Assembly: GCA_965215505.1 (NCBI GenBank) | Contig: OZ244065.1 | Location: forward strand, 3,712,001-3,776,000 | DNA: 64,000 nucleotides | From: Capsulimonadaceae bacterium | Lineage (GTDB): Bacteria > Armatimonadota > Armatimonadia > Armatimonadales > Capsulimonadaceae | Reading direction: 5' to 3' | Part shown: in pieces, positions 1,575 through 49,915 of the stretch | Layout of the letters: each line of letters opens with the position of its first letter | Position numbering within the stretch: position 1 is the stretch's first letter | The notes under the pieces: model-generated | The model's database searches: none | Seen by the model: the letters and a program-made list of their open reading frames with translations, nothing else | Told to the model about the DNA's origin: nothing | Program-made: the position numbers and the translations under genes

Positions 1575-2833
1575 GCCGCCTCCAGCATAAGGTCCAGCGT
1601 CAGGGTTTCAGGGATGGAATAGGATATACAAACTGGAGGTGGCGGCGAGCCACCGGCTCGCAGTGTTTCGATGGAGTGCATGAACACCCAGCGAACAGCA
1701 GGAACGCAGACAGCGTCGCCAAAGCCGTGCATCTGCTCAGTCTCCCCGCCGACTAGTCGGAAGTCCGGGGCAGAACTTGGTAGGCATACACCTTGAAGCC
1801 GTGCCGCTTCCACGCCGAGGATACGGCGTACCCGCACCGCGCCCCCCTCAGTCTCCACGATGTACTGTGCGGAGGAGCCACCTTTCGGCGTTCGCAGGCA
1901 ACTCGCGAGGCTGTCAAAGCGCAGGTTGATGATCTGCTCCCGAACCCCCCTCCGGCGGAGGCGGCGCACGGCAGTCATGTGTCTGCGCTCCGGCGAACAC
2001 ATCAGGGTTTTCAGCTTCGGGCCGTGGTGTGTCTCCAAGTGGTGCCAGAAATACTCCATCTTAGTTTCATCCCACCAACGGGGGTCATCCGGTGGGAGCG
2101 TCTCTACGATGTCTTGGAGGCCGATATTGCGAACCGGAAGGGGCGGGAAGTCGAAAAACACCCAAGGCAAATGCGGATTCCGCTGATAGACTTCTCTCAC
2201 CTTGTAGCGACGGATGTGAGCCATCGGAATGTTTTGGGGGCGGGGGAACCGGTCACGGCCCAGAACAGCGATGATGAAGACCCGATTACGGGTCTGCGGC
2301 AGGAAGTGACTGGCGTCTACCTGTACTAGATCAAAGCAGTAGCCGAGGTCAGCGATGCGGTGCAACAACTGGTCAATGGATTTCCCCTCGTGTAGCGAGA
2401 GAAGACCCGGTACGTTTTCCAGAAACAGAAACTCAGGCGCATTATCAAGCCGGTGCAGATCAGCAATCCGGTCTAGAAAACCCCAAACGACGCCGCTCTC
2501 ATCCCCATTAATCCCTTCTCTGCCCCCTGCTTGACTCAGATCAATGCACGGGAAAGAGGCTGTGGCGACTTGAACAGGACCAACCCCAGAGACATCCAGC
2601 AAGCGAACATCTTCACCGCTGAGGGGTGTGTCGGGAAAGTTGGCGCGGTATGAAGCCGCCTTCTTCACGCTGTTGTCATTCGCCAGCACGACCCGCCAGC
2701 CGAGCGGACGCAGGGCCTCATGGATGAGGCCGATGCCGGAGAAAAACTCCACAACATTCAGCGGCTTCTTGTGGCGATACTGGCTAGCCGAGTCGAGGGT
2801 ATGGTAGCCTCCCGGCTGCGTCAAGGGACTCAT
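1571..2833 (-). CDS. DNA (cytosine-5)-methyltransferase
   Basis: Motifs FFSGIG (I), SFPC (IV), ENV (VI), QTRNRVF (VIII), GDAV (X); ATG 2833 chosen because TATAAT lies 6 nt upstream. Confidence 0.92.
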   Translation of the reverse strand: MSPLTQPGGYHTLDSASQYRHKKPLNVVEFFSGIGLIHEALRPLGWRVVLANDNSVKKAASYRANFPDTPLSGEDVRLLDVSGVGPVQVATASFPCIDLSQAGGREGINGDESGVVWGFLDRIADLHRLDNAPEFLFLENVPGLLSLHEGKSIDQLLHRIADLGYCFDLVQVDASHFLPQTRNRVFIIAVLGRDRFPRPQNIPMAHIRRYKVREVYQRNPHLPWVFFDFPPLPVRNIGLQDIVETLPPDDPRWWDETKMEYFWHHLETHHGPKLKTLMCSPERRHMTAVRRLRRRGVREQIINLRFDSLASCLRTPKGGSSAQYIVETEGGAVRVRRILGVEAARLQGVCLPSSAPDFRLVGGETEQMHGFGDAVCVPAVRWVFMHSIETLRAGGSPPPPVCISYSIPETLTLDLMLEAA

Positions 2834-2949
2834 CGGCTGATTATACCGCAAGCGGCCACCCGCCGTCAGGTTTTGACCGCTGGCACAGCCAAAAACATGA
2901 CGTTGGGCCGATATGAGGGCGTCCCAGCCCTGAAGGGCTGGGACGCCCC

Positions 2950-4548
2950 TCACCCCAGCAGCGGCGGGACTTCGGGCGAGATCGCCACTTCCAGCACGGT
3001 CGGCCCCGCCGCGGCCATCCCCGACTGCAAAGCTTCCATCAAATCCCCCGGCTGCTCCACGCGGCGGGCGTCGCAGCCGTAGCCCTTTGCCAGCGTGACG
3101 ATGTCCAGACCCGGCAGGTCCAGGCCGGGGATGCCGGTCGTCTTCTCCTCCTCGGCGAACGACTTCAGGATGGCGTACTCGCGGTTGTCGGGCACGATAA
3201 CGAGTATCGGTAGCCGGTGCTGGGCGGCGGTGTAGAGCGCCTGGATGGAGTACTGGAAGGAGCCGTCGCCGATGACCGCGACCACGGGCCGGTTCCGGCC
3301 CGTTTGCCGCTCGGCCAGGGCGATACCGACCGAAGCGGGCAGGCCGAAGCCCAGCCCGCCGCTCGCCATGCTGTAATAGGAATTGGGCTTTGTCGCGGGC
3401 AGACGCATGTGCATCGGCTTCATGTTGGAGGGGGACTCCTGCACCAGAACCGCACCCTCGGGCCTGGCCCCGGCCAGGGCGTGGAACAGGAAGTCGGCGG
3501 TCATCGGGGTCGTCTGCTCGGGGGCTGACTGGGCCGGGCGCGGGGTCGGCAGGGGCCGGTCCGAGGCCGTGACCGCGTCGGCCAGCATCGCGCAGGCCAG
3601 GGCAGCGTCGCCCAAAATGGCGTCGCCGACCGGAGCGCGGGCGGCCTCGTTCGGGTCGTCGGTGAAATGGATCAGCCGCGTCCCGCTGGGCAGGAACTCG
3701 CCCGGCACATAGGGGTAGTAGCGGAACACGGGGGCACCGACGACCAGGACGACGTCATGGCCCTTCAGCTTCTCCCCCAGCGGCCCGATGGCGAAGGGCA
3801 GGGTGCCCATGAACTGCGGGTGGTCCTCGGGGAACCCGGCCCGTTCGGCGGCGGGCGGCGAGTAGACCGGCGCGCGCAGCTTCTCGGCCAGCGTGACTGC
3901 CGCCTCCCAGCCGCCGCTGCGGTCCACGCCCGGCCCGAAGACGAGGGCCGGGTTCCGAGCGCCCGACAGCAGGGCGGCGGCGTCTTTCAAGGCGTCCGGG
4001 TCGGGCGCGGTCCGGCGGCTGACCGTGCGGACGGCGGTTTCTCGCTCAATGGGCTTCTCCCAGTCGTCCATCGGCAGCGACAAAAAGACCGGCCCCATCG
4101 GCGGCTGGAGGGCGGCGGCATACGCGCGCATCAGCGCGCCGGGCGCGTCCTCGGCGCGGGCCGTCTCGTAGCTCCACTTGACATACGGCTTCGGCAGCTC
4201 GGTCGCGTCGATGTTCGTCAGCCACGGCTCCAGCAGCAGCATCTCGCGCGTCTGCTGGCCCGCCGTGACGATCAAAGGCGTCTTGTTGTGCCACGCCCCG
4301 ATCAAGGCCCCCATGGCGTTGCCGACGCCCGGCGCGGTGTGCAGGTTGACGAGGGCGGGCCGGCCCGTCGCCTGCGCGTAGCCGTCGGCCATCGCCAAAA
4401 CGCTGGCTTCCTGCAAGCCCAGCACATAGGTGAAGTCGGCGGGGAAGTCCTGGAGGAACGTCTCCTCGGTCGAGCCGGGGTTGCCGAAGATGGTGGTCAG
4501 GCCCAGGGCGCGCAGCAGCCGGTAGGTTTCGTCGCGGACGGTGGTCAT
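2950..4548 (-). CDS. mdlC: Benzoylformate decarboxylase (ThDP-dependent)
   Basis: N-terminal FGNPGSTE...LGLQEASVLAMADGYAQA and ThDP-binding GDGS...N motif typical of MdlC. Confidence 0.85.
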   Translation of the reverse strand: MTTVRDETYRLLRALGLTTIFGNPGSTEETFLQDFPADFTYVLGLQEASVLAMADGYAQATGRPALVNLHTAPGVGNAMGALIGAWHNKTPLIVTAGQQTREMLLLEPWLTNIDATELPKPYVKWSYETARAEDAPGALMRAYAAALQPPMGPVFLSLPMDDWEKPIERETAVRTVSRRTAPDPDALKDAAALLSGARNPALVFGPGVDRSGGWEAAVTLAEKLRAPVYSPPAAERAGFPEDHPQFMGTLPFAIGPLGEKLKGHDVVLVVGAPVFRYYPYVPGEFLPSGTRLIHFTDDPNEAARAPVGDAILGDAALACAMLADAVTASDRPLPTPRPAQSAPEQTTPMTADFLFHALAGARPEGAVLVQESPSNMKPMHMRLPATKPNSYYSMASGGLGFGLPASVGIALAERQTGRNRPVVAVIGDGSFQYSIQALYTAAQHRLPILVIVPDNREYAILKSFAEEEKTTGIPGLDLPGLDIVTLAKGYGCDARRVEQPGDLMEALQSGMAAAGPTVLEVAISPEVPPLLG

Positions 4549-43337: not shown

Positions 43338-44309
43338 GTGTATTATTCCCCTAAGATTTCGATGGCCTCCCGCGCCGCCTTCCTGGCTTTGATTCCGGTC
43401 CTGGCGGCCAACGCCCCCCAGGCGTCGCAGGCCCAGACCACTTATGTGGCCGTCGGCGACAGCCTCGCCTACGGCTTCATGGACTTCAATGCCACCCCGA
43501 CCGGGACGGCGGGCTATCCCGGCTACGCCCAGCCCTACGCCGCCTTCCTGAGCAGTCCCGGCAAGACGGTGAGCCTCGTCAACCTTGGCATCGTCGGCGA
43601 AACCACCGACTCCCTGCTGGGCAACTCGGTCGGCAACAGCGCCCTCAACAGCAACTACAGCGTTGCCGCCCCGACCTCCCAGTACGCCCTGCTCTCGGCG
43701 GACCTGAACCCGAACGTCAGCAACGTCACCGTCCAGATCGGCGGCAACGACATCCTCGGCCTGGCCTCGAACCCCGCCTTCCAGGATGCCTTCGTGGACG
43801 GCGATACGGCCACCGCCAACGCGCTCCTGAACGCCACGCTGACGCACATCGGGGCCAACTACAATGCCCTCTTGACCCAGATCAACACGCTGGCACCGGG
43901 CGCGAAGGTGCAGGCGATGGGTTACTACAATCCCTACGCCTTCCTGCCGCCGACGAACCAGAACAACATCTATCTCCAAGCCGTCTCTGGCCCTCTGGAG
44001 CAGGGGCTTAACACCGTGATCGCGCAGGAAGCCGCCCTGCACCACGACCAGTTCGTGGACCTGAATACTGCCTTCGCCGCGCAGGGAAGCCAGTACGGCA
44101 GCTATGTGCTGACCGGCGAGACGATCCCCACCGCCTTCGGCCCCCTCCCCAACGACCACCCGACCGCCCTGGGCTACGGCCTCATCGCCCAGCAGCTTGA
44201 AGCCGCCCCCGTCCCTGAAGCCTCCACCGCGCTCTCCTTCGGCCTCCCGGCAGCCCTGGGGCTTGGCGGCCTGATCGTCGCCGTCCGGCGGAGGAAGAGG
44301 CGGGCGTAG
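43338..44309 (+). CDS. SGNH/GDSL hydrolase with PEP-CTERM-like sorting tail
   Basis: GDSL, IGGND, DHP; signal peptide; VPEAST + TM + RRRKRR. Confidence 0.88.
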   Translation: MYYSPKISMASRAAFLALIPVLAANAPQASQAQTTYVAVGDSLAYGFMDFNATPTGTAGYPGYAQPYAAFLSSPGKTVSLVNLGIVGETTDSLLGNSVGNSALNSNYSVAAPTSQYALLSADLNPNVSNVTVQIGGNDILGLASNPAFQDAFVDGDTATANALLNATLTHIGANYNALLTQINTLAPGAKVQAMGYYNPYAFLPPTNQNNIYLQAVSGPLEQGLNTVIAQEAALHHDQFVDLNTAFAAQGSQYGSYVLTGETIPTAFGPLPNDHPTALGYGLIAQQLEAAPVPEASTALSFGLPAALGLGGLIVAVRRRKRRA

Positions 44310-44504: not shown

Positions 44505-44604
44505 CGCGGCTGGTTCCAGCACACGGGCCGTCCCCGTCCCCCAAACCGCGCACCGGGAAGGAAACCGGCTCCGATGCCGGGAACAATGGCATAGGAGAAC
44601 CCTC

Positions 44605-45615
44605 ATGCCATCCTCACCTGCGCCCTACTACGGTTTCAACTTCCTCTGGATGTACGTCTCGGACGGAGAGACGCCCCGCCCGCCCGACGAGCGCGCGCTG
44701 GACTTCCTGGTCCGGACCGGCTTCAACTTCGTGCGCGTCCCGACCAACTACCGCTCCTGGATCAAGGACTTCGACTATTTCCACCCCGACGAGGCCGTCT
44801 TTTCCTACATTGACCGCTACCTCGACGCCTGCCGGTCGCGCGGCCTGCATCTGAGCCTGAACCTGCACCGCGCGCCCGGCTACTGCATCAACAACAACGA
44901 CCTGGAGCGCGACAACCTCTGGCTCGACCCGGTCGCCCAGGACGGGTTCGTCTTCCAGTGGGAGACCTTCACCCGCCGCTTCCTCGGCACCCCCAGTTCC
45001 GCGCTCTCCTTCGACCTCCTGAATGAGCCGCCGAATGTCGGGCAGTACGGCCTGACCCGCGAAAACCACGCCGCCGTCATCCGCCGCGCCGTTCAGGCCA
45101 TCCGCGCGATTGACCCCGCCCGCGAGATCGTCATTGACGGCCTGGGCGGCGGCCACCTCGCCATGCCCGAGCTTGCCGACCTTGGCGTGGTCCACAGCGG
45201 ACGTGGCTACCAGCCCATGCCGGTCAGCCACCACAAGGCAAGCTGGTGGGACGGCCACGCGGCCGCCCCCGCGCCCGAGTATCCCGGCCAGGTGTGGGAG
45301 GGCCGGACGTGGGACCGCGACTCGCTGCGCGAGTTTTACCAGCCCTGGCGGGACGTGGAGGCGGGCGGCGCGCGGGTACACATCGGCGAGTGCGGCTGCT
45401 ACAACAAGACCCCCAACGACATCGTCCTGCGCTGGCTTGGGGACCTGTTCGGCCTGTACAAAGAGTTCGGCTGGGGCTACGCCCTCTGGAACTTCGCCGG
45501 CGACTTCGGCATCGTCGAACACGGCCGCCCCGGCGCGGTCTACGAGGAGCTGCACGGGTACAAAGTGGACCGCGCCCTGCTGGACATCCTAACGGAGAGC
45601 CGCGCATCGGCATGA
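44605..45615 (+). CDS. Glycoside hydrolase family 5
   Basis: GFNFVRVP, LHRAPG, NEP acid/base, IGECG nucleophile, WN. Confidence 0.88.
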   Translation: MPSSPAPYYGFNFLWMYVSDGETPRPPDERALDFLVRTGFNFVRVPTNYRSWIKDFDYFHPDEAVFSYIDRYLDACRSRGLHLSLNLHRAPGYCINNNDLERDNLWLDPVAQDGFVFQWETFTRRFLGTPSSALSFDLLNEPPNVGQYGLTRENHAAVIRRAVQAIRAIDPAREIVIDGLGGGHLAMPELADLGVVHSGRGYQPMPVSHHKASWWDGHAAAPAPEYPGQVWEGRTWDRDSLREFYQPWRDVEAGGARVHIGECGCYNKTPNDIVLRWLGDLFGLYKEFGWGYALWNFAGDFGIVEHGRPGAVYEELHGYKVDRALLDILTESRASA

Positions 45616-45670
45616 CAGAGGACAGGAAGAGGGGGTATAACTCTAACACGACACGCGGGGGACTGAAGAC

Positions 45671-46408
45671 ATGAGACAAGCCAGCTTTGCGGACATTAAC
45701 GAGGACTTCACGGCCCCGCCGTCGGGCTGCCGCGTGGTGCGCGCCGACGCCCTGACGGCATTGGCCGCCGTTCCCGATAGGACCTTCCGCTGCTGCGTCA
45801 CCAGCCCTCCGTACTGGGGCCTGCGCGATTATGATGTTGAACACCAGGTCGGGGCGGAGCCGAGGCTGGAAGATTACATTGCCAACGTGCGCGCCGTCTT
45901 CGCCGAGGTCCGTCGGACGCTGACGGACGACGGGACGCTCTGGCTAAACATTGGGGACAGCTACACAAGCGGGGGGCGGACCTGGCGCGACGCGGACAAG
46001 AAGAACAAGGGCCGGGCGATGGATTACCGCGCGCCTACTCCAGACGGGCTGAACCCCAAGGACCTCATTGGCGTCCCCTGGCGGCTCGCGTTCGCCTTGC
46101 AGGACGACGGCTGGTATCTGCGCTCGGACATCATCTGGCACAAGCCCAACTGCCAGCCGGAGAGCGTCAAGGACCGGCCGACGCGCGCCCATGAATACCT
46201 GTTCCTGTTCTCCAAGTCGGAGAAGTATCACTACGATCACGAGGCCGTCAAGGAGCCAACGGCCACGGCAGGCATGAAAGAGACGGGCCTGAAAAACCGC
46301 CGCTCCGTCTGGTCCGTCAATGAACCGCAGATGAGGCTTCGAAGTGACCTTACTCCTGAGCAGCGAGCATACGTTTTGCGGAGAATTGCCGACGAGGGTT
46401 TGCTCTAG
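45671..46408 (+). CDS. N4-cytosine DNA methyltransferase (beta class), N-terminal half
   Basis: TSPPYWGLRDY catalytic motif, LWLNIGDSY, IIWHKPN, HEYLFL, NRRSVWSVN, then a 28-aa foreign tail; no SAM-binding motif. Confidence 0.9.
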   Translation: MRQASFADINEDFTAPPSGCRVVRADALTALAAVPDRTFRCCVTSPPYWGLRDYDVEHQVGAEPRLEDYIANVRAVFAEVRRTLTDDGTLWLNIGDSYTSGGRTWRDADKKNKGRAMDYRAPTPDGLNPKDLIGVPWRLAFALQDDGWYLRSDIIWHKPNCQPESVKDRPTRAHEYLFLFSKSEKYHYDHEAVKEPTATAGMKETGLKNRRSVWSVNEPQMRLRSDLTPEQRAYVLRRIADEGLL

Positions 46409-47368
46409 TCAGATGGCACCCGCGCGAACAGTACAGAACGCCAGGACGGTCTGCTGTAAACACCTTGCCGCAAGCTTGACACGCTTGGGGATCTCGTTTA
46501 AGGTGTACAGATCGACACGACCGAGAACAATATTTCAAGGTTCGGGAGGTCGCTCTCCGAGAAACGAAAACCTTGCCACACGCGATGCAGGATGCAGTAC
46601 AGCAGGCGTCACAAACTTTAGACGCAGGGGAGCGGGGCGTGAAGTCTACCCCGCACTTTGCACATGGGCGCAAAGGGACAACAAAGGGAAAACGTCGTAG
46701 GTCAGCAATGTCGGGATTGTTCCGCAGGAAGGCTATCTCCGCTTTGCCGTGACACTTGGGGCAGAGAGTAACAAGGTTTTCAATCTTGTTGGCATGGCGG
46801 TAGTCGGTAAACAGGTGGAACGGCGTGACATGATGCACAGGCAATCCACGGGCGATTATTCCACAGTGCTGACAAGTATCGTTGTCCCGCTTCCTGGCAG
46901 CGATTCTCTGGCGGTTCCAGTTTTCGCCACGATAGCTCATATGGCCGCCCTGCCATGTCGAGTTGTTTGGGCCGCTCATAATTCCAGAAGACCGCCATTT
47001 GGCCGCGCAGGATCGGCCGCAGAAGTTGTGTTCTTTGAGGCTACTTGGGCTGCGCTCTATCGTTCTGCCGCACATGAAGCAAGGAACCGAAACTTTCTTG
47101 GAGCCTACGCCTTTACGATGAGCCTGTTGCCATTTGCCGTAGCACGACAATCCGCAGAAATGGTTCACGGACAGCCCCGCCATGTAGGGCTTTGCCTGGT
47201 ACGGTGAGCCGCATTCATCACATGTTAGGGTGATCATGCTCTATCATACGCTCTAAATGGAAAATCGTCAATGAACATCACTTTGCGCCGGGACGAGATA
47301 CCCGATGACCTGCTAGAGTTTTTCGAGGATGCTGATACGCAGGCAAAAACGGACGTGTTCCGTGTCAA
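46321..47368. mobile_element. HNH endonuclease-carrying insert splitting the methyltransferase
   Basis: Removing these 1048 bp (GTCAA at both junctions) restores SVWSVNTEAFREAHFATFP in frame; the insert is visibly lower in GC. Confidence 0.75.
46350..47237 (-). CDS. HNH endonuclease with multiple Cys-rich zinc-binding repeats (homing-endonuclease-like)
   Basis: RDNDTCQHCG...VHHVTP...NKIENLVTLCPKCH; repeated CxxCG...(F/Y)CxxxC units on both sides. Confidence 0.9.
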   Translation of the reverse strand: MITLTCDECGSPYQAKPYMAGLSVNHFCGLSCYGKWQQAHRKGVGSKKVSVPCFMCGRTIERSPSSLKEHNFCGRSCAAKWRSSGIMSGPNNSTWQGGHMSYRGENWNRQRIAARKRDNDTCQHCGIIARGLPVHHVTPFHLFTDYRHANKIENLVTLCPKCHGKAEIAFLRNNPDIADLRRFPFVVPLRPCAKCGVDFTPRSPASKVCDACCTASCIACGKVFVSRRATSRTLKYCSRSCRSVHLKRDPQACQACGKVFTADRPGVLYCSRGCHLTRANPRRQFSAKRMLAAQE

Positions 47369-47591
47369 CACCGAAGCCTTCCGCGAAGCGCACTTCGCCA
47401 CCTTCCCTACCAAACTTGTCGAGCCGTGCATCCTGGCCGGGTCGGAGCCGGGCGACACGGTCCTTGACCCCTTCCTCGGCTCCGGCACGGTCGGGCTGGT
47501 GGCCTGCCGACTGGATCGGAAGTTCTTGGGGGTGGAGTTGAGCGAGGAATACGCCTCAATCGCCCGGCGGCGGCTGGGCTGGACTAAATAG
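47271..47591 (+). CDS. N4-cytosine DNA methyltransferase, C-terminal half
   Basis: 33-aa foreign head, then TEAFREAHFATFP...VLDPFLGSGT (SAM-binding)...GVEL. Confidence 0.88.
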   Translation: MNITLRRDEIPDDLLEFFEDADTQAKTDVFRVNTEAFREAHFATFPTKLVEPCILAGSEPGDTVLDPFLGSGTVGLVACRLDRKFLGVELSEEYASIARRRLGWTK

Positions 47592-47750
47592 GTTCTGCTC
47601 CGGCGGGGGCGGTGTATCTTCCGGGGCGGGAGCGACGGTGGGGATGATCCAGGAGACGTGCCGAACGCAGAACTCTATTTGCAGGCCGGAGATGGTGATC
47701 TTGCCGTCGCTCCCGTCCAGGCGCAGTGTGAACGCAGGCCGCCCATCAAT

Positions 47751-48846
47751 AGATACTCCGTGAAATAGAGAAAGGGGTTGTCCCTGCCGAAGATTGTGGC
47801 ATGAACCTGACCCAACTGCACCGCCTGCCCAAAGACCGTGTCCGTGCCCTCTTCGGCCTCGACCCCGCCGCCCTCGGCCAACTGCTGGCCGCCGTCCTGC
47901 CCCCGCTTGTGGGGAAGCGGCACGCCTAACAGGAGGCCAAGGGGAAGCGGCACGCCCAACAGGAGGCCAAGAGGAACCGGCAGCGCGCCGTCGGCGGCGG
48001 GCGCAGGCGCAAGCTGCTCCCGTACCAGGAGGTTTTGATCACCCTGGTCTACCTGCGCCACAACGTCTCCCACGCCGTCTCCCACGCCGTCTGCGGCCAG
48101 ATGTTCGGCGTCAGCGCCGACATCAGCGAGAACAGCTTCCACGAGGTCATCCGGCTCTTGCGCGACGTGTGCCCCGCCGACCGCTGGGGCGCCGAGAAGA
48201 AGTGGACCAAGAGGGAGCCGTCGTGGCACCCCGACACGCTGGACCTGATCCTGGTGGACAGCTTCGAGACCCCCATCGGCCGGTCGAGCCTGCCGGACGT
48301 GCAGCGCAAGTTCTACTCGGGCAAGAAGAAGCGCCACACGACCAAGACACAGATCATTACCAACAAGCAGGGCGAGGTGCTTGCCATTGAGCCGGGGCAC
48401 CCCGGCCCTAAGTCCGATAAGAAGCTCTACGAACAAAGCCGGGCCAAAGATCAGTACCCGCAACGGGCCAAAGATCAGTACCCGCAAGCGGCGCGTCGGG
48501 CGGACCTTGCGTATGTGGGCGTGCCGGAGATGCTGCTGCCGCACAAGAAGGTGCGGGGCAAAGCAGGCGAGAAAGCCCTGCCGCTGACGCCGGAGCAGCA
48601 GGAAGAGAACCGGCACGCGGCGTCGGCGCGTGTCCCGGTGGAGCACGGGGTACGCCGGGTGAAGGCGTGGCGCATCCTGCGCGACGAGTACCGTCTGGCG
48701 CGGGGCCTGTTCTCGACGATCGCGCTGGCGACGGTGGGGCTGGTTCATCTGAGCCGTGTTGTGCCTGGATGAAGCCAAGCCGGAACAGAAGGGCGGCTGC
48801 GCCGCCCAGCTCACCCGGCAAGACATGGCTATTTCACGGAGCATCT
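47751..48846 (+). mobile_element. IS5-like (ISL2/DDE_Tnp_4-type) insertion sequence
   Basis: 18-bp TIRs AGATACTCCGTGAAATAG / AGATGCTCCGTGAAATAG, 3-bp AAT duplication. Confidence 0.9.
47801..48772 (+). pseudogene. Transposase with a premature stop and internal duplications
   Basis: GGGRRRKL, LVYLRHN, VDSFE, YSGKKKRH, ADLAYVG, RVPVEH; TAA at 47927. Confidence 0.85.
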
Positions 48847-49915
48847 AATGGTGACCTTCACACTGCTACCGCCTTGGGAGGTCCGGGGACTGAAATCGGC
48901 GGACGTCAGGGCGGCAACGCGCCCCAGAACGTCGCGCGGTATCTCCACGATCTCGCAGAGCAGTCGGGTCGCCGACACGTCCCGTGCGCGGAGTACGAGG
49001 ATGCGGTCGTACTGGCTGAGGTGGGCTGGTATCCGCCGCGCGGCTTCCCGAGCCAGGTCTTCCAGCGTGGAGAACTGCTGTATCCAACGCGCCTCGGTGA
49101 ACTTGGAGATGGTGATCTTGTCCGGGCGGATGTCTTTAGAGGCTTCCGTTTTCAGCGAGAGCTTGACGCCTTCAACGGTCACGTCAATGCCGGAGAAGGT
49201 GTCACTGACAGTGATCGTCTCGGCCCTGCCATCGGCTGCACAGGCTCCCCTGAAGGCGTATTCAAACGCCTTCTTGCTCAACCGGGCTTCGTTCGTCGCG
49301 TGATGGATGAGGAGGCGGTTGCGAGAATCAGCCGTGAAGCGGGGCGTGGCAAAATCACTGGCCGGGTTGACGGTTTCCTCGACCTGACGCATCATCGTCC
49401 GGGCGACTTCGGTCAGCAACTCCACTTGAATCGGGTCAAGCCTCGTCGCGACCGAGATCAGTTCCCGAAGGGCGGTGCGTTCCTCGGCTTCGTCGGGCGG
49501 TTGATCGTCTCGCAGCATCACACCGAATTTAACACAGATTCCATCAGGAGTCAAACCCCATTGGGAAAGGCCGAGCGCAACGCGCCCGGCCTTCTGCTAT
49601 CCGACTGTGGGTGAAGGAGGTTGCTCGCCCTAAACTTCGCTCCGCGACTCGGGCTGCGGCGGCGAGATCGCGCCGCTGGTGGCGGCCCGCTCGAAGCTGT
49701 CTACTAGACCGGCGAAGCGCTCGAAGCGGCGGGCGGCGGCGGGGGACAGGTTATCCGTGTTGACTTTGGCGTCGTTGGGGGCGGGGCGCGGTTCGGCCCC
49801 TCTCTGTGACGGCGAGACGTTCGAGTTGATCGTTTCCGGCATGACTTGTTTGACCCCTTCCGCCAATGCTGCCTGCAATGGTTCCTGTCTGGCCTGCGGT
49901 TCCTGATTATACCCG

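Follow-up and report, generated by a model that had tools for sequence, protein, structure and literature searches.

Within the window, the whole 64,000-nucleotide stretch that was analyzed, a beta-class N4/N6 DNA methyltransferase gene is present as two open reading frames (ORFs), an N-part of 245 residues and a C-part of 106 residues, on either side of an antisense HNH endonuclease gene (Table 1). In Pfam scans against PF01555 (N6_N4_Mtase), the N-part matched profile positions 2 to 145 of 221 (E 2.2e-28, 100.1 bits) and the C-part positions 142 to 220 (E 2.9e-22, 80.2 bits); both exceed the gathering cutoff of 26.7 bits, and the catalytic and SAM-binding halves of the family are both covered by the two fragments. 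The HNH product matched PF01844 with 29.1 bits (cutoff, 21.4 bits), and H136, N150, N154, and H163, together with the Cys pairs, are invariant across 20 sequences. The HNH ORF occupies 888 of the 1048 bp of the insert, its 3' end overlapping the tail codons on the opposite strand (46350-46408). About 5 nt separate its putative promoter from the HNH ATG, and the first base of the C-part ATG lies within the -35 hexamer; an equivalent promoter layout in the aligned intergenic DNA, and a GGAG-like site at the place matching the Shine-Dalgarno-like site, were seen in most of 19 other loci, in both cases by eye and without counting.

Table 1. Features of the split methyltransferase locus (window coordinates)
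Feature	Position	Strand	Evidence or remark
N-part ORF	45671-46408	+	245 aa
Host-derived N-part, M1-N217, catalytic SPPY motif	45671..46321	+	PF01555 match; identity to intact alleles; dN/dS
Insert, 1048 bp, single copy in the 6.18-Mb genome	46321..47368		Low GC; absent from four same-genus alleles and one X5 contig
C-terminal tail of N-part, residues 218-245 + stop, insert-encoded	46322..46408	+	Conserved in 17 loci (alignment A3)
HNH endonuclease gene, 295 aa, several CxxC zinc-finger-like modules	46350..47237	-	PF01844; homologues
Sigma-70-like HNH promoter, TTGACG-17 nt-TATGAT	47243..47271	-	10/12 consensus matches
Shine-Dalgarno-like site, 8 nt before C-part ATG	47258..47262	+	By eye
C-part ORF	47271-47591	+	106 aa
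N-terminal head of C-part, codons 1-33, insert-encoded	47271..47369	+	Alignment A2; acidic segment, then strand copy (47346-47369)
Host-derived C-part, SAM-binding FxGxG motif, stop codon included	47370..47591	+	PF01555 match; dN/dS
Detached 3' remnant of restriction gene, 62 codons + stop	47556..47744	-	Matches L005, L007, L008 C-termini
IS element, DDE_Tnp_4 transposase (PF13359), within restriction gene	47745..48849		Pfam; X3/X6 contigs
SmaI-like restriction endonuclease gene, 5' part	48850..49554	-	PF17411, E 1.2e-17

The insert stands out by composition, with a GC content of 0.51 to 0.565 across 46300-47299 versus 0.605 to 0.68 in the flanks (200-nt windows). The pentanucleotide GTCAA at 46316-46320 occurs again at 47364-47368, and the insert edges are ambiguous by this common stretch; taking out 46321-47368 leaves 217 + 73 = 290 codons. 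N217 is the last host residue of the N-part, which is closed after its tail by a stop at 46406-46408, and the C-part restarts in another frame. The diverged second copy of the pre-junction strand, at the end of the head, is a trait of the whole family and not of the window only. No terminal inverted repeats pairing the insert ends were found; there are 10 short inverted pairs in 46200-47500, the nearest (12 nt, 83%; 46340-46351 with 47386-47397) having its second arm outside the insert. Rfam gave no match at E<=1 across 45000-48500, and no group I or II ribozyme core was detected; Pfam scans found no intein family in the fragments, and intein features are lacking, tail and head together amounting to about 55 to 60 residues with end residues that are not conserved. 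An exact 11-nt direct repeat (46315-46325 and 47266-47276) was also considered as a mark of the mechanism. Among 16 loci compared, the window alone had a repeat length that no shuffle reached (among 300 shuffles, 8 and 12 matched the 7-nt repeats of L023 and L031, respectively), and the repeat was dropped as a window-only feature, taken as local.

The neighboring restriction gene is interrupted. As now read, its ORF ends within the IS element at 48829, the PF17411 match spans profile positions 8 to 182 of 240, and there is no full-length ORF; the homologues adjoining intact methyltransferase genes in L005, L007, and L008 are about 60 residues longer. In contigs of runs X3 and X6, which lack the IS, 47744 is joined to 48850 with 6 other letters. 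The X6 contig, about 5% divergent, carries the split methylase and the HNH gene beside an IS-free restriction gene joined in frame, indicating that the split is older than the IS. The restriction-modification (R-M) system is thus not intact in this genome, the last ~62 restriction codons being severed by the IS, and because the restriction gene is broken here, the methylase may by now be under weaker selection.

The original prediction, made from sequence alone, had proposed a methyltransferase split into two intact ORFs by an antisense HNH gene, a lower-GC insert at 46321-47368 whose deletion at GTCAA restores a 290-residue enzyme, a stop and a start supplied by the insert, a re-supplied diverged copy of the interrupted motif, and the absence of intein termini, terminal inverted repeats, and an intron core. 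All of these held (ORF coordinates, Pfam, repeat search, Rfam), with one minor correction, namely N217 as the final host residue, which places the tail at residues 218 to 245. The proposed setting, a chromosomal R-M methyltransferase, held only in part, the restriction gene here being cut by the IS.

Uninterrupted alleles and evolution of the halves

An uninterrupted allele is found in four genomes of the same genus (G005, G007, G013, and G017), with 79 to 85% identity to the N-part. The N-part match ends at residue 218, and the intact alleles run straight across the junction, exactly where the original prediction had placed it. In one metagenome contig of run X5, which also lacks the insert, 46320 is joined to 47388 with 19 other letters between. 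The whole cassette is therefore present or absent at one codon among close relatives. Compared with the intact alleles, dN/dS is 0.04 to 0.13 for the N-part and 0.04 to 0.14 for the C-part. In run X3, 2 of 1419 positions in the tract 46157-47575 are different from those of the window, whereas neighboring contigs differ at 21/557 and 21/199 positions; such a near-identical tract within diverged flanks suggests recent spread with flanking co-conversion. Presence/absence polymorphism and the near-identical tract support homing only indirectly, and cleavage by the HNH enzyme is inferred, without cutting data.

The search for HNH homologues returned 34, of which 19 are 44 to 95% identical over at least 82% of the query. 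The tail, antisense HNH gene, and head occupy the same codon in 16 of the 19 loci with a close homologue; in two more, the other side of the HNH gene is lost beyond the contig edge, and in the remaining one (L018) the methyltransferase is absent on the visible side. One split gene, L016, has decayed, its N-part being frameshifted at the junction and its C-part stopping 16 codons past the head. The checks that accompanied the original prediction, namely intact alleles, an HNH gene at the same codon elsewhere, and dN/dS of the halves, thus gave intact alleles in close relatives, recurrence at the same codon, and ratios that are not neutral.

The history of the HNH genes is less well resolved. 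Only 2 of 16 inner branches of their tree have strong support. The presence or absence of a four-Cys insert in the C-part requires five changes on this tree, shuffled labels giving means of 4.5 to 4.6, and 500 of 500 label shuffles were as low as observed; there is no clustering, and with so few supported branches, transfer between architectures is not proven. Pairwise identities fall in similar ranges for the HNH proteins (41 to 77%) and the host methyltransferases (31 to 71%), so that much of the family history could be vertical; pairwise identities cannot tell co-descent from transfer. Among viral contigs only two loci have a site-1 head, and viral HNH relatives are distant (24 to 50% over aligned segments, most spanning only part of the query).

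The tail and head as a recurring pair

The coding ends of the insert, a tail of 28 residues and a head whose acidic part has about 25, are maintained as protein. Majority-base frequencies at codon positions 1, 2, and 3 are 0.76, 0.89, and 0.50 for the tail and 0.77, 0.85, and 0.52 for the head, and the head has a pN of 0.29 and a pS of 0.80; tail and head are kept at the protein level while third codon positions vary, that is, under purifying selection. The window head has a net charge of -5 and a pI of 4.1, and heads overall are acidic (median pI 4.1, net -4.5); tails are mildly basic (median pI 8.5, net +1), 4 of 17 cores being net negative.

Head-only and tail-only hidden Markov models were applied to 204 proteins from two profile searches, and a head was found in 142 and a tail in 53 of them. 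The great majority are terminal (131 heads at the N terminus, 46 tails at the C terminus); the internal ones (11/142 heads, 7/53 tails), e.g., P0149, P0166, and P0229, are in-frame fused forms without an HNH gene. Both tail and head are present in P0189 and P0058. The pair was found at no fewer than three positions of the methyltransferase fold. In L101 and L102 the same pair surrounds an unrelated sense-strand HNH gene, and at a second site it surrounds a distant antisense HNH gene in L183 and a sense HNH gene in L188, so that the HNH genes it accompanies belong to three or more lineages and can be in either orientation; what lies between tail and head was visible only in loci fetched by pattern scans. 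The tail and head are a conserved, portable pair and not incidental ends of the insert. In passing, the N-part of L017 contains a ShiLan-like hidden HNH, and true inteins are detected by Pfam in the related methyltransferases P0070 and L101.

Searches for known relatives of the pair were negative: no Pfam family covers the module in the fused forms at E<=1, the PDB sequence search with head and tail profiles gave nothing significant (best E values of 0.24 and 0.091, to unrelated proteins), and a tail search among proteins of 30 to 133 residues yielded no candidate with enough common words. Structural information comes from models only. The N-part/C-part complex model reached an ipSAE of 0.83 (0.83, 0.82, and 0.83 in the individual runs), the best control scoring 0.00; 58 of 80 solved complexes reach the 0.83 mark versus 2 of 110 mismatched pairs, counts that hold only roughly since our own alignments were supplied. 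At least 83% of contacts were common to the runs, partner pLDDT was at least 73, and the modeled interface contains tail residues 218 to 244 and head residues 2 to 21. The interface is known only as a list of participating residues, without pairing of individual tail and head residues, and the complex score may largely reflect likeness to solved single-chain methyltransferases. In the AlphaFold model of the fused form P0229, the corresponding block (pLDDT 70 to 91) has a strand (61-64), a helix (70-82), a strand (92-94), and a helix (100-105), from which tail and head are predicted to form one small beta-alpha-beta-alpha unit in the interface.

Proposed mechanism, alternatives, and known systems

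We consider it likely that the insert is a free-standing homing endonuclease cassette that does not splice, and that the methyltransferase fragments are reassembled through a tail/head clasp; methylation, assembly, HNH cleavage, and transcripts are inferred here, without experiment. In this view, the cassette would consist of a 28-codon tail with its stop, an opposite-strand HNH gene with a compact promoter, and a ribosome-binding site, start, and head, the last comprising about 25 acidic codons and then the strand beside the cut in a second, re-spelled copy, and opening the downstream fragment. The HNH enzyme would presumably cut insert-free alleles at a conserved methyltransferase motif, and repair of the cut would copy the cassette in. 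The fragments would be translated apart and reassemble noncovalently, tail and head probably forming one beta-alpha-beta-alpha unit that clasps the halves, as inferred from conservation and models; the pair would stand in for the ribozyme of an intron or the splicing domain of an intein. The partner restriction gene was broken later in this genome, by the IS. The original prediction of a non-splicing homing element with a two-subunit host enzyme is supported by computation, methylation, cleavage, and the absence of splicing being inferred; to be added to it is that the coding ends of the insert are a conserved pair, probably holding the halves together by analogy with Aeh1 nrdA.

The alternative that survives best, although unlikely, is that the split methyltransferase is dead or dying here, the insertion having inactivated a gene whose loss is tolerated as the restriction gene is, or became, broken. 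In its favor, the SmaI-like gene has lost its final ~62 codons to the IS, and L016 shows that split genes of this family can decay. Against it, both fragments are open, with intact catalytic and SAM-binding motifs and dN/dS of 0.04 to 0.14 versus intact alleles; the X6 contig pairs the split gene with an IS-free restriction gene, so the split came before the IS; and layout and tails are conserved family-wide.

The other three alternatives are very unlikely. In the first, tail and head together would be an ancient domain inserted in frame into some methyltransferases, and the HNH genes would merely have settled in its loop: HNH-less fused forms are known (11/142 heads and 7/53 tails internal), the same tails accompany three HNH lineages, and HNH and host identities covary. 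However, tail, HNH gene, and head are present or absent together, as a single low-GC unit of 1048 bp, when compared with the four intact alleles and the X5 contig, at least three unrelated fold positions fit a mobile cassette better, and no Pfam model spans the module. Covalent ligation by a very small, atypical split intein made of tail and head, as in "fractured genes," is suggested by the shared order of fragment, endonuclease gene, and fragment (PMC2677866), by the window head ending in Asn followed by Thr, and by a degenerate intein having been raised by Crona et al. as a possible origin of the Aeh1 tails (PMC3045599). Yet tail and head, at ~55 to 60 residues, are far below the size of a Hint fold, the tail start lacks a conserved Cys/Ser and the end residues of the head vary, Pfam finds no intein in the window fragments while detecting the true ones in P0070 and L101, and the module stays in frame in the fused forms. 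A self-splicing intron carrying an antisense endonuclease gene would fit insertion within a conserved motif, which is common for homing introns, but there is no Rfam match at E<=1, the HNH ORF takes 888 of 1048 bp, purifying selection acts on both translated ends, where the stop, the Shine-Dalgarno-like site, and the start are conserved, and HNH genes of either orientation are flanked by the same ends.

The cassette-and-clasp reading has its closest precedent in the phage Aeh1 "genes in pieces" ribonucleotide reductase, nrdA-a/mobE/nrdA-b, whose fragments bear insertion-derived tails (Crona et al. 2011, PMC3045599). There too, an enzyme gene is interrupted, at a point between two strands of the fold, by a free-standing HNH gene, the insert brings a stop and a start, no RNA or protein splicing is involved, and the extra tails are absent from intact homologues, in our case by comparison of the window with its relatives. 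The role of the Aeh1 tails in holding the halves has been shown experimentally (PMC3045599); their pI values of 3.8 and 10.4 (PMC3045599) are paralleled clearly by the acidic head and only weakly by the mildly basic tail of the window family. Unlike Aeh1, where a single phage gene has unique tails, one conserved family is found here: 131 fragments begin with the head and 46 end with the tail, no fewer than three insertion sites are occupied, and the accompanying HNH genes differ and can face either way. The split gene is a chromosomal R-M methyltransferase, its HNH gene runs antisense with one end overlapping the tail codons, and assembly is inferred, without biochemistry. Crona et al. anticipated that tails of this kind would be idiosyncratic and would escape similarity searches (PMC3045599); what is new relative to Aeh1 is that one tail/head pair recurs on more than 100 other methylase fragments, among which both the insertion site and the endonuclease vary.

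The ShiLan domain, a hidden out-of-frame HNH within actinophage DNA methylases (Arsenault, Gosselin, Gogarten 2025, PMC11855218), is likewise an HNH homing element in a DNA methylase without an intron or intein, with zinc fingers on the HNH and a short duplicated stretch adjoining the insertion site. The methylase frame, however, is open through the ShiLan insert and the HNH lies on the same strand in another frame, whereas here the gene is divided into two ORFs by a stop and a fresh start, the frame does not stay open, and the HNH gene is antisense. Fractured genes, which combine a split intein with a free-standing endonuclease gene (Dassa et al. 2009, PMC2677866), share the arrangement of fragment, endonuclease gene, and fragment in one locus and an invader that brings stop and start; there the extensions are split-intein halves, presumably ligated, whereas here they are too short and have no intein motifs. 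Phage T4 mobA is associated with the split topoisomerase genes 39 and 60, whose fragments bear tail-like extensions (PMC3045599). M.AquI is a natural two-subunit methyltransferase; two-subunit methyltransferases, which are C5 enzymes, are not known to contain an endonuclease cassette. In both the T4 and M.AquI cases, the enzyme functions as two polypeptides after the split, but there is no sequence in common with the window system.

Homing endonuclease genes are thought to persist in essential or conserved genes only by way of self-splicing introns or inteins, to which Aeh1 nrdA, its fragments reassembled by tails derived from the insert, was one exception. A bolder reading, somewhat less likely than not, is that the tail/head pair is a dedicated portable clasp, a third vehicle for homing endonuclease genes besides introns and inteins, which would repair its host by noncovalent reassembly; it would embrace several fold positions, exchange of cargo (at least three HNH lineages, on either strand), three-piece genes, and endonuclease-free fused scars resembling mini-inteins. 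If so, noncovalent reassembly would be a heritable, transferable strategy and not a one-off accident. As a natural two-part clasp of about 25 + 25 residues, the pair would be a candidate split-protein tool. Many methyltransferase genes that are listed as "truncated" in genome or REBASE-type annotation would then be working two- or three-piece enzymes, their activity being inferred.

A methyltransferase gene split by an HNH insert

The original prediction that a DNA methyltransferase gene is split by an HNH endonuclease insert was confirmed, and its three open reading frames (ORFs) are exactly as described. The insert extends the N-part by a C-terminal tail (residues 218 to 245) and the C-part by an N-terminal head. 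It has GTCAA at each end, and GC content is 0.51 to 0.565 over 46300-47299 compared with 0.605 to 0.68 in both flanks; the insert and the HNH gene are each single copy in the 6.18-Mb one-contig genome. A GH5 cellulase gene lies upstream of the split gene, and an insertion sequence (IS) and a restriction gene lie downstream.

Features of the split methyltransferase locus and its surroundings
Feature	Position	Strand	Description
Methyltransferase N-part	45671-46408	+	245 aa; PF01555 N6_N4_Mtase profile positions 2-145 of 221 (Pfam)
Insert	46321-47368		1048 bp
HNH gene	46350-47237	-	295 aa; PF01844 HNH (Pfam)
-35/-10 pair of HNH gene	47271-47243	-	TTGACG, 17 nt, TATGAT
Methyltransferase C-part	47271-47591	+	106 aa; PF01555 N6_N4_Mtase profile positions 142-220 of 221 (Pfam)
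Direct repeat, copy at left junction	46315-46325		exact, 11 nt
Direct repeat, copy at C-part start codon	47266-47276		exact, 11 nt
IS	47745-48849		inside SmaI-like restriction gene
Short ORF in IS	47801-47929		upstream of transposase ORF
Transposase ORF in IS	48035-48772		DDE_Tnp_4
Restriction ORF	48829-49554	-	SmaI family (Pfam)
Separate ORF	43338-44309		C-terminal hydrophobic segment, Arg/Lys-rich end

The 3' end of the HNH gene overlaps the tail on the opposite strand, by 59 nt including stops in the window and by 34 nt in the related locus L017. The intergenic DNA is conserved, with a GGAG-like site 8 to 10 nt ahead of the start codon of the head and, on the HNH strand, the -35/-10 pair, whose -10 element stops just a few bases short of the start codon of the HNH gene; the HNH transcript is inferred to be near-leaderless. 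The direct repeat was not found in 15 other loci compared and is therefore probably a local coincidence or the product of local conversion. The separate ORF is unrelated to the split methyltransferase; judged by eye, its product resembles lipase-like proteins that carry a PEP-CTERM-type sorting signal.

Three other readings were rejected. An intein is ruled out because Pfam shows none of the intein families in the fragments and because the extensions lack the necessary length and have variable end residues; true inteins are detected in related methyltransferases, unlike in the window fragments. Hidden HNH genes have been described in phage methylases, with a short duplication beside the site (Arsenault et al. 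2025, PMC11855218); this design, as in the out-of-frame ShiLan endonuclease, is excluded since a stop closes the host frame. An intron is ruled out because there is no Rfam match, the HNH ORF takes 888 of the 1048 bp, and both insert ends are translated.

Conservation and portability of the tail and head

A search with the HNH protein returned 34 homologues at E≤1e-3, of which 19 are 44 to 95% identical over at least 82% of the query, and the Cys and His columns of the alignment are invariant. Pattern scans fetched 5 loci from genome contigs and 80 from metagenome contigs, and 19 loci (L016-L018, L021-L035, L037) formed a close set with phmmer E≤1e-40 to the window HNH. In 16 of these 19, an N-part and a C-part lie on either side of the HNH gene and on the opposite strand, and the tail that ends the N-part and the head that opens the C-part are of the same kind as in the window. 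Two others (L030, L032) show only the head side, the other side being past the contig end, and in L018 the visible side contains no methyltransferase. The hosts differ widely, with N-parts of about 300 to 540 aa and C-parts of 119 to 440 aa, with or without a four-Cys insert; one C-part contains an intein. One member (L016:3817-5742) is decayed, with an intact HNH ORF but an N-part frameshifted at the junction and a C-part that stops 16 codons past the head. More distant HNH relatives adjoin whole methyltransferase genes and do not lie within them. Three loci with long flanks (L024, L026, L027) look phage-like, with SNF2, DnaB-like, IstB-like, PIF1, and MT-A70 genes; the window copy is unusual in being located within a chromosomal restriction-modification (R-M) cassette.

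Both extensions are selected as protein. For the head (18 loci), pN was 0.29 and pS was 0.80 over codons 2 to 20, and majority-base frequencies at codon positions 1, 2, and 3 were 0.77, 0.85, and 0.52; the corresponding values for the tail (17 loci, 15 codons) were 0.76, 0.89, and 0.50. The tail pattern persists even though the tail partly overlaps the 3' end of the oppositely oriented HNH gene, and in L017 this overlap leaves the best-conserved tail codons largely untouched.

The pair is also portable. A 62-position head-region profile searched against 1.84 billion representatives gave 11,419 matches at E≤1e-3. Ordinary methyltransferases make up most of these, aligning through the motif that follows the head. 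At E≤1e-10 there were 788, and the top 150 consist mainly of proteins of 100 to 250 aa that start with the head. The tail profile search gave 54 proteins. When head-only and tail-only HMMs were run on 204 proteins from both searches, the head was found in 142 (131 N-terminal, 11 internal) and the tail in 53 (46 C-terminal, 7 internal). The 131 N-terminal heads are followed by the region after the window's junction (92), the region just past the SPPY motif (9), or a region about 100 to 140 residues into the N-part (11); the remaining 19 were unclassed by the filter, and three inspected (P0043, P0066, P0124) are short C-parts of the window-junction kind. C-terminal tails follow the three matching places in 41, 1, and 1 cases, and a fourth place, in the C-part, in P0237 (HMM) and P0236 (by eye). 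Two fragments (P0189, P0058) carry both head and tail, and their genes are therefore in three pieces. Seven fused forms (P0149, P0166, P0112, P0113, P0229, P0233, P0235) lack the endonuclease and have tail and head in frame.

The pair flanks other endonuclease genes in viral contigs: a sense-strand HNH_5-type gene in L101 and L102, with no significant similarity to the window HNH (best BLASTP E 0.14, L101), and, at the second site, an antisense HNH that is only distantly related (26% identical, E 7e-7) in L183 and a sense-strand HNH in L188. Two further proteins (P0231, P0232) end in the same tail with a weak or no PF01555 match, P0232 having no Pfam match at E≤1, so the cassette may also occur in other methyltransferase families.

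Related methyltransferase genes are hot spots at which several types of homing element occur. The L017 N-part (2760-3488, minus strand) has an in-frame insert of about 250 residues with an out-of-frame HNH ORF on the same strand (PF01844, E 1.1e-12), a hidden endonuclease resembling ShiLan that shares its host gene with the tail/head cassette. Inteins lie within other conserved motifs of related fragments (L035/P0070, L101:84-1847, L102), with LAGLIDADG_3 matches and a weak Intein_splicing match under the Pfam cut-off.

Intact alleles and population variation

Among 61 genomes (G000 and 60 relatives), 27 had an N-part match. In four of the same genus (G005, G007, G013, G017), the match, 79 to 85% identical, ends at residue 218 and lies in one open frame of 289 to 313 codons, whose translation crosses the junction unbroken into the window's post-insert sequence; in three of the four (L005, L007, L008), a SmaI-like gene adjoins the intact methyltransferase.

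Contigs of four public sequencing runs were aligned to window positions 44600-49600. In run X5, one contig has 19 other letters between 46320 and 47388, an uninterrupted allele, and the insert is also present (46499-47447, 0 differences). An X3 contig over 46157-47575 has 2 differences in 1419, and neighboring contigs have 21 in 557 (45467-46023) and 21 in 199 (47546-47744). An X6 contig of 3268 nt, with a divergence of about 5%, has both the split gene and the insert but not the IS, 47744 being joined to 48850 by 6 letters. The cassette is therefore polymorphic, forms a nearly identical tract within diverged flanks, and predates the IS. Contigs of X3 and X5 join 45590/45603 to 49569, the whole R-M cassette being absent; the block of methyltransferase, HNH, IS, and restriction genes behaves as an insertion/deletion of about 4 kb between the cellulase gene and the next gene.

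The SmaI-like restriction gene is broken in the window genome. Its ORF terminates within the IS, genes of relatives run about 60 residues longer, and the missing end is encoded intact beyond the IS, at 47744-47559; in the IS-free contigs, present in X3 and X6, the join is in frame because it is 6 letters. The X3 IS copy lacks 12 nt at 48064, a difference suggesting that the window's copy has a short tandem duplication.

Probable reassembly by the peptide pair

All 20 head sequences are acidic (median net charge -4.5, pI 4.1). The core of the tail is mildly basic (median +1, pI 8.5), with 4 of 17 negative. A complex model of the two fragments had an ipSAE of 0.83 (0.83, 0.82, and 0.83 in three runs) against 0.00 for the best of three controls, with at least 83% of contacts in common between runs and partner pLDDT of at least 73. 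Among solved complexes, 58 of 80 attain this ipSAE mark, as do 2 of 110 mismatched pairs, counts that apply only roughly here because the alignments were author-supplied; the pass could reflect likeness to solved one-chain methyltransferases. Residues in the modeled interface include 218-224, 227, 231, 235-236, 238-239, 242, and 244 of the tail and 2-11, 14-15, and 17-21 of the head. In the AlphaFold model of the natural fused protein P0229 (mean pLDDT 71.3, pTM 0.73), the module has a strand (61-64), a helix (70-82), a strand (92-94), and a helix (100-105), with block pLDDT of 70 to 91; it is inferred to be one small unit, with tail and head each supplying one half.

In Aeh1 nrdA, tails from the mobE insertion are essential for activity and are basic and acidic (pI 10.4 and 3.8); such tails were predicted to occur elsewhere yet to be hard to detect by similarity (Crona et al. 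2011, PMC3045599). Split inteins in fractured genes have also been reported, with the idea that stop and start codons come with the invading element (Dassa et al. 2009, PMC2677866). The full-text literature searched, subscription journals and supplementary files being outside its scope, contained no account of split methyltransferases that share a conserved pair of tail and head. The original interpretation, a non-splicing homing element that keeps its host gene alive as a two-subunit enzyme, is supported. What is new is that the cassette carries a conserved, portable peptide pair, which probably reassembles the enzyme, on comparative and model evidence only. The tail/head cassette is the Aeh1 principle in a new form, with a much wider reach.
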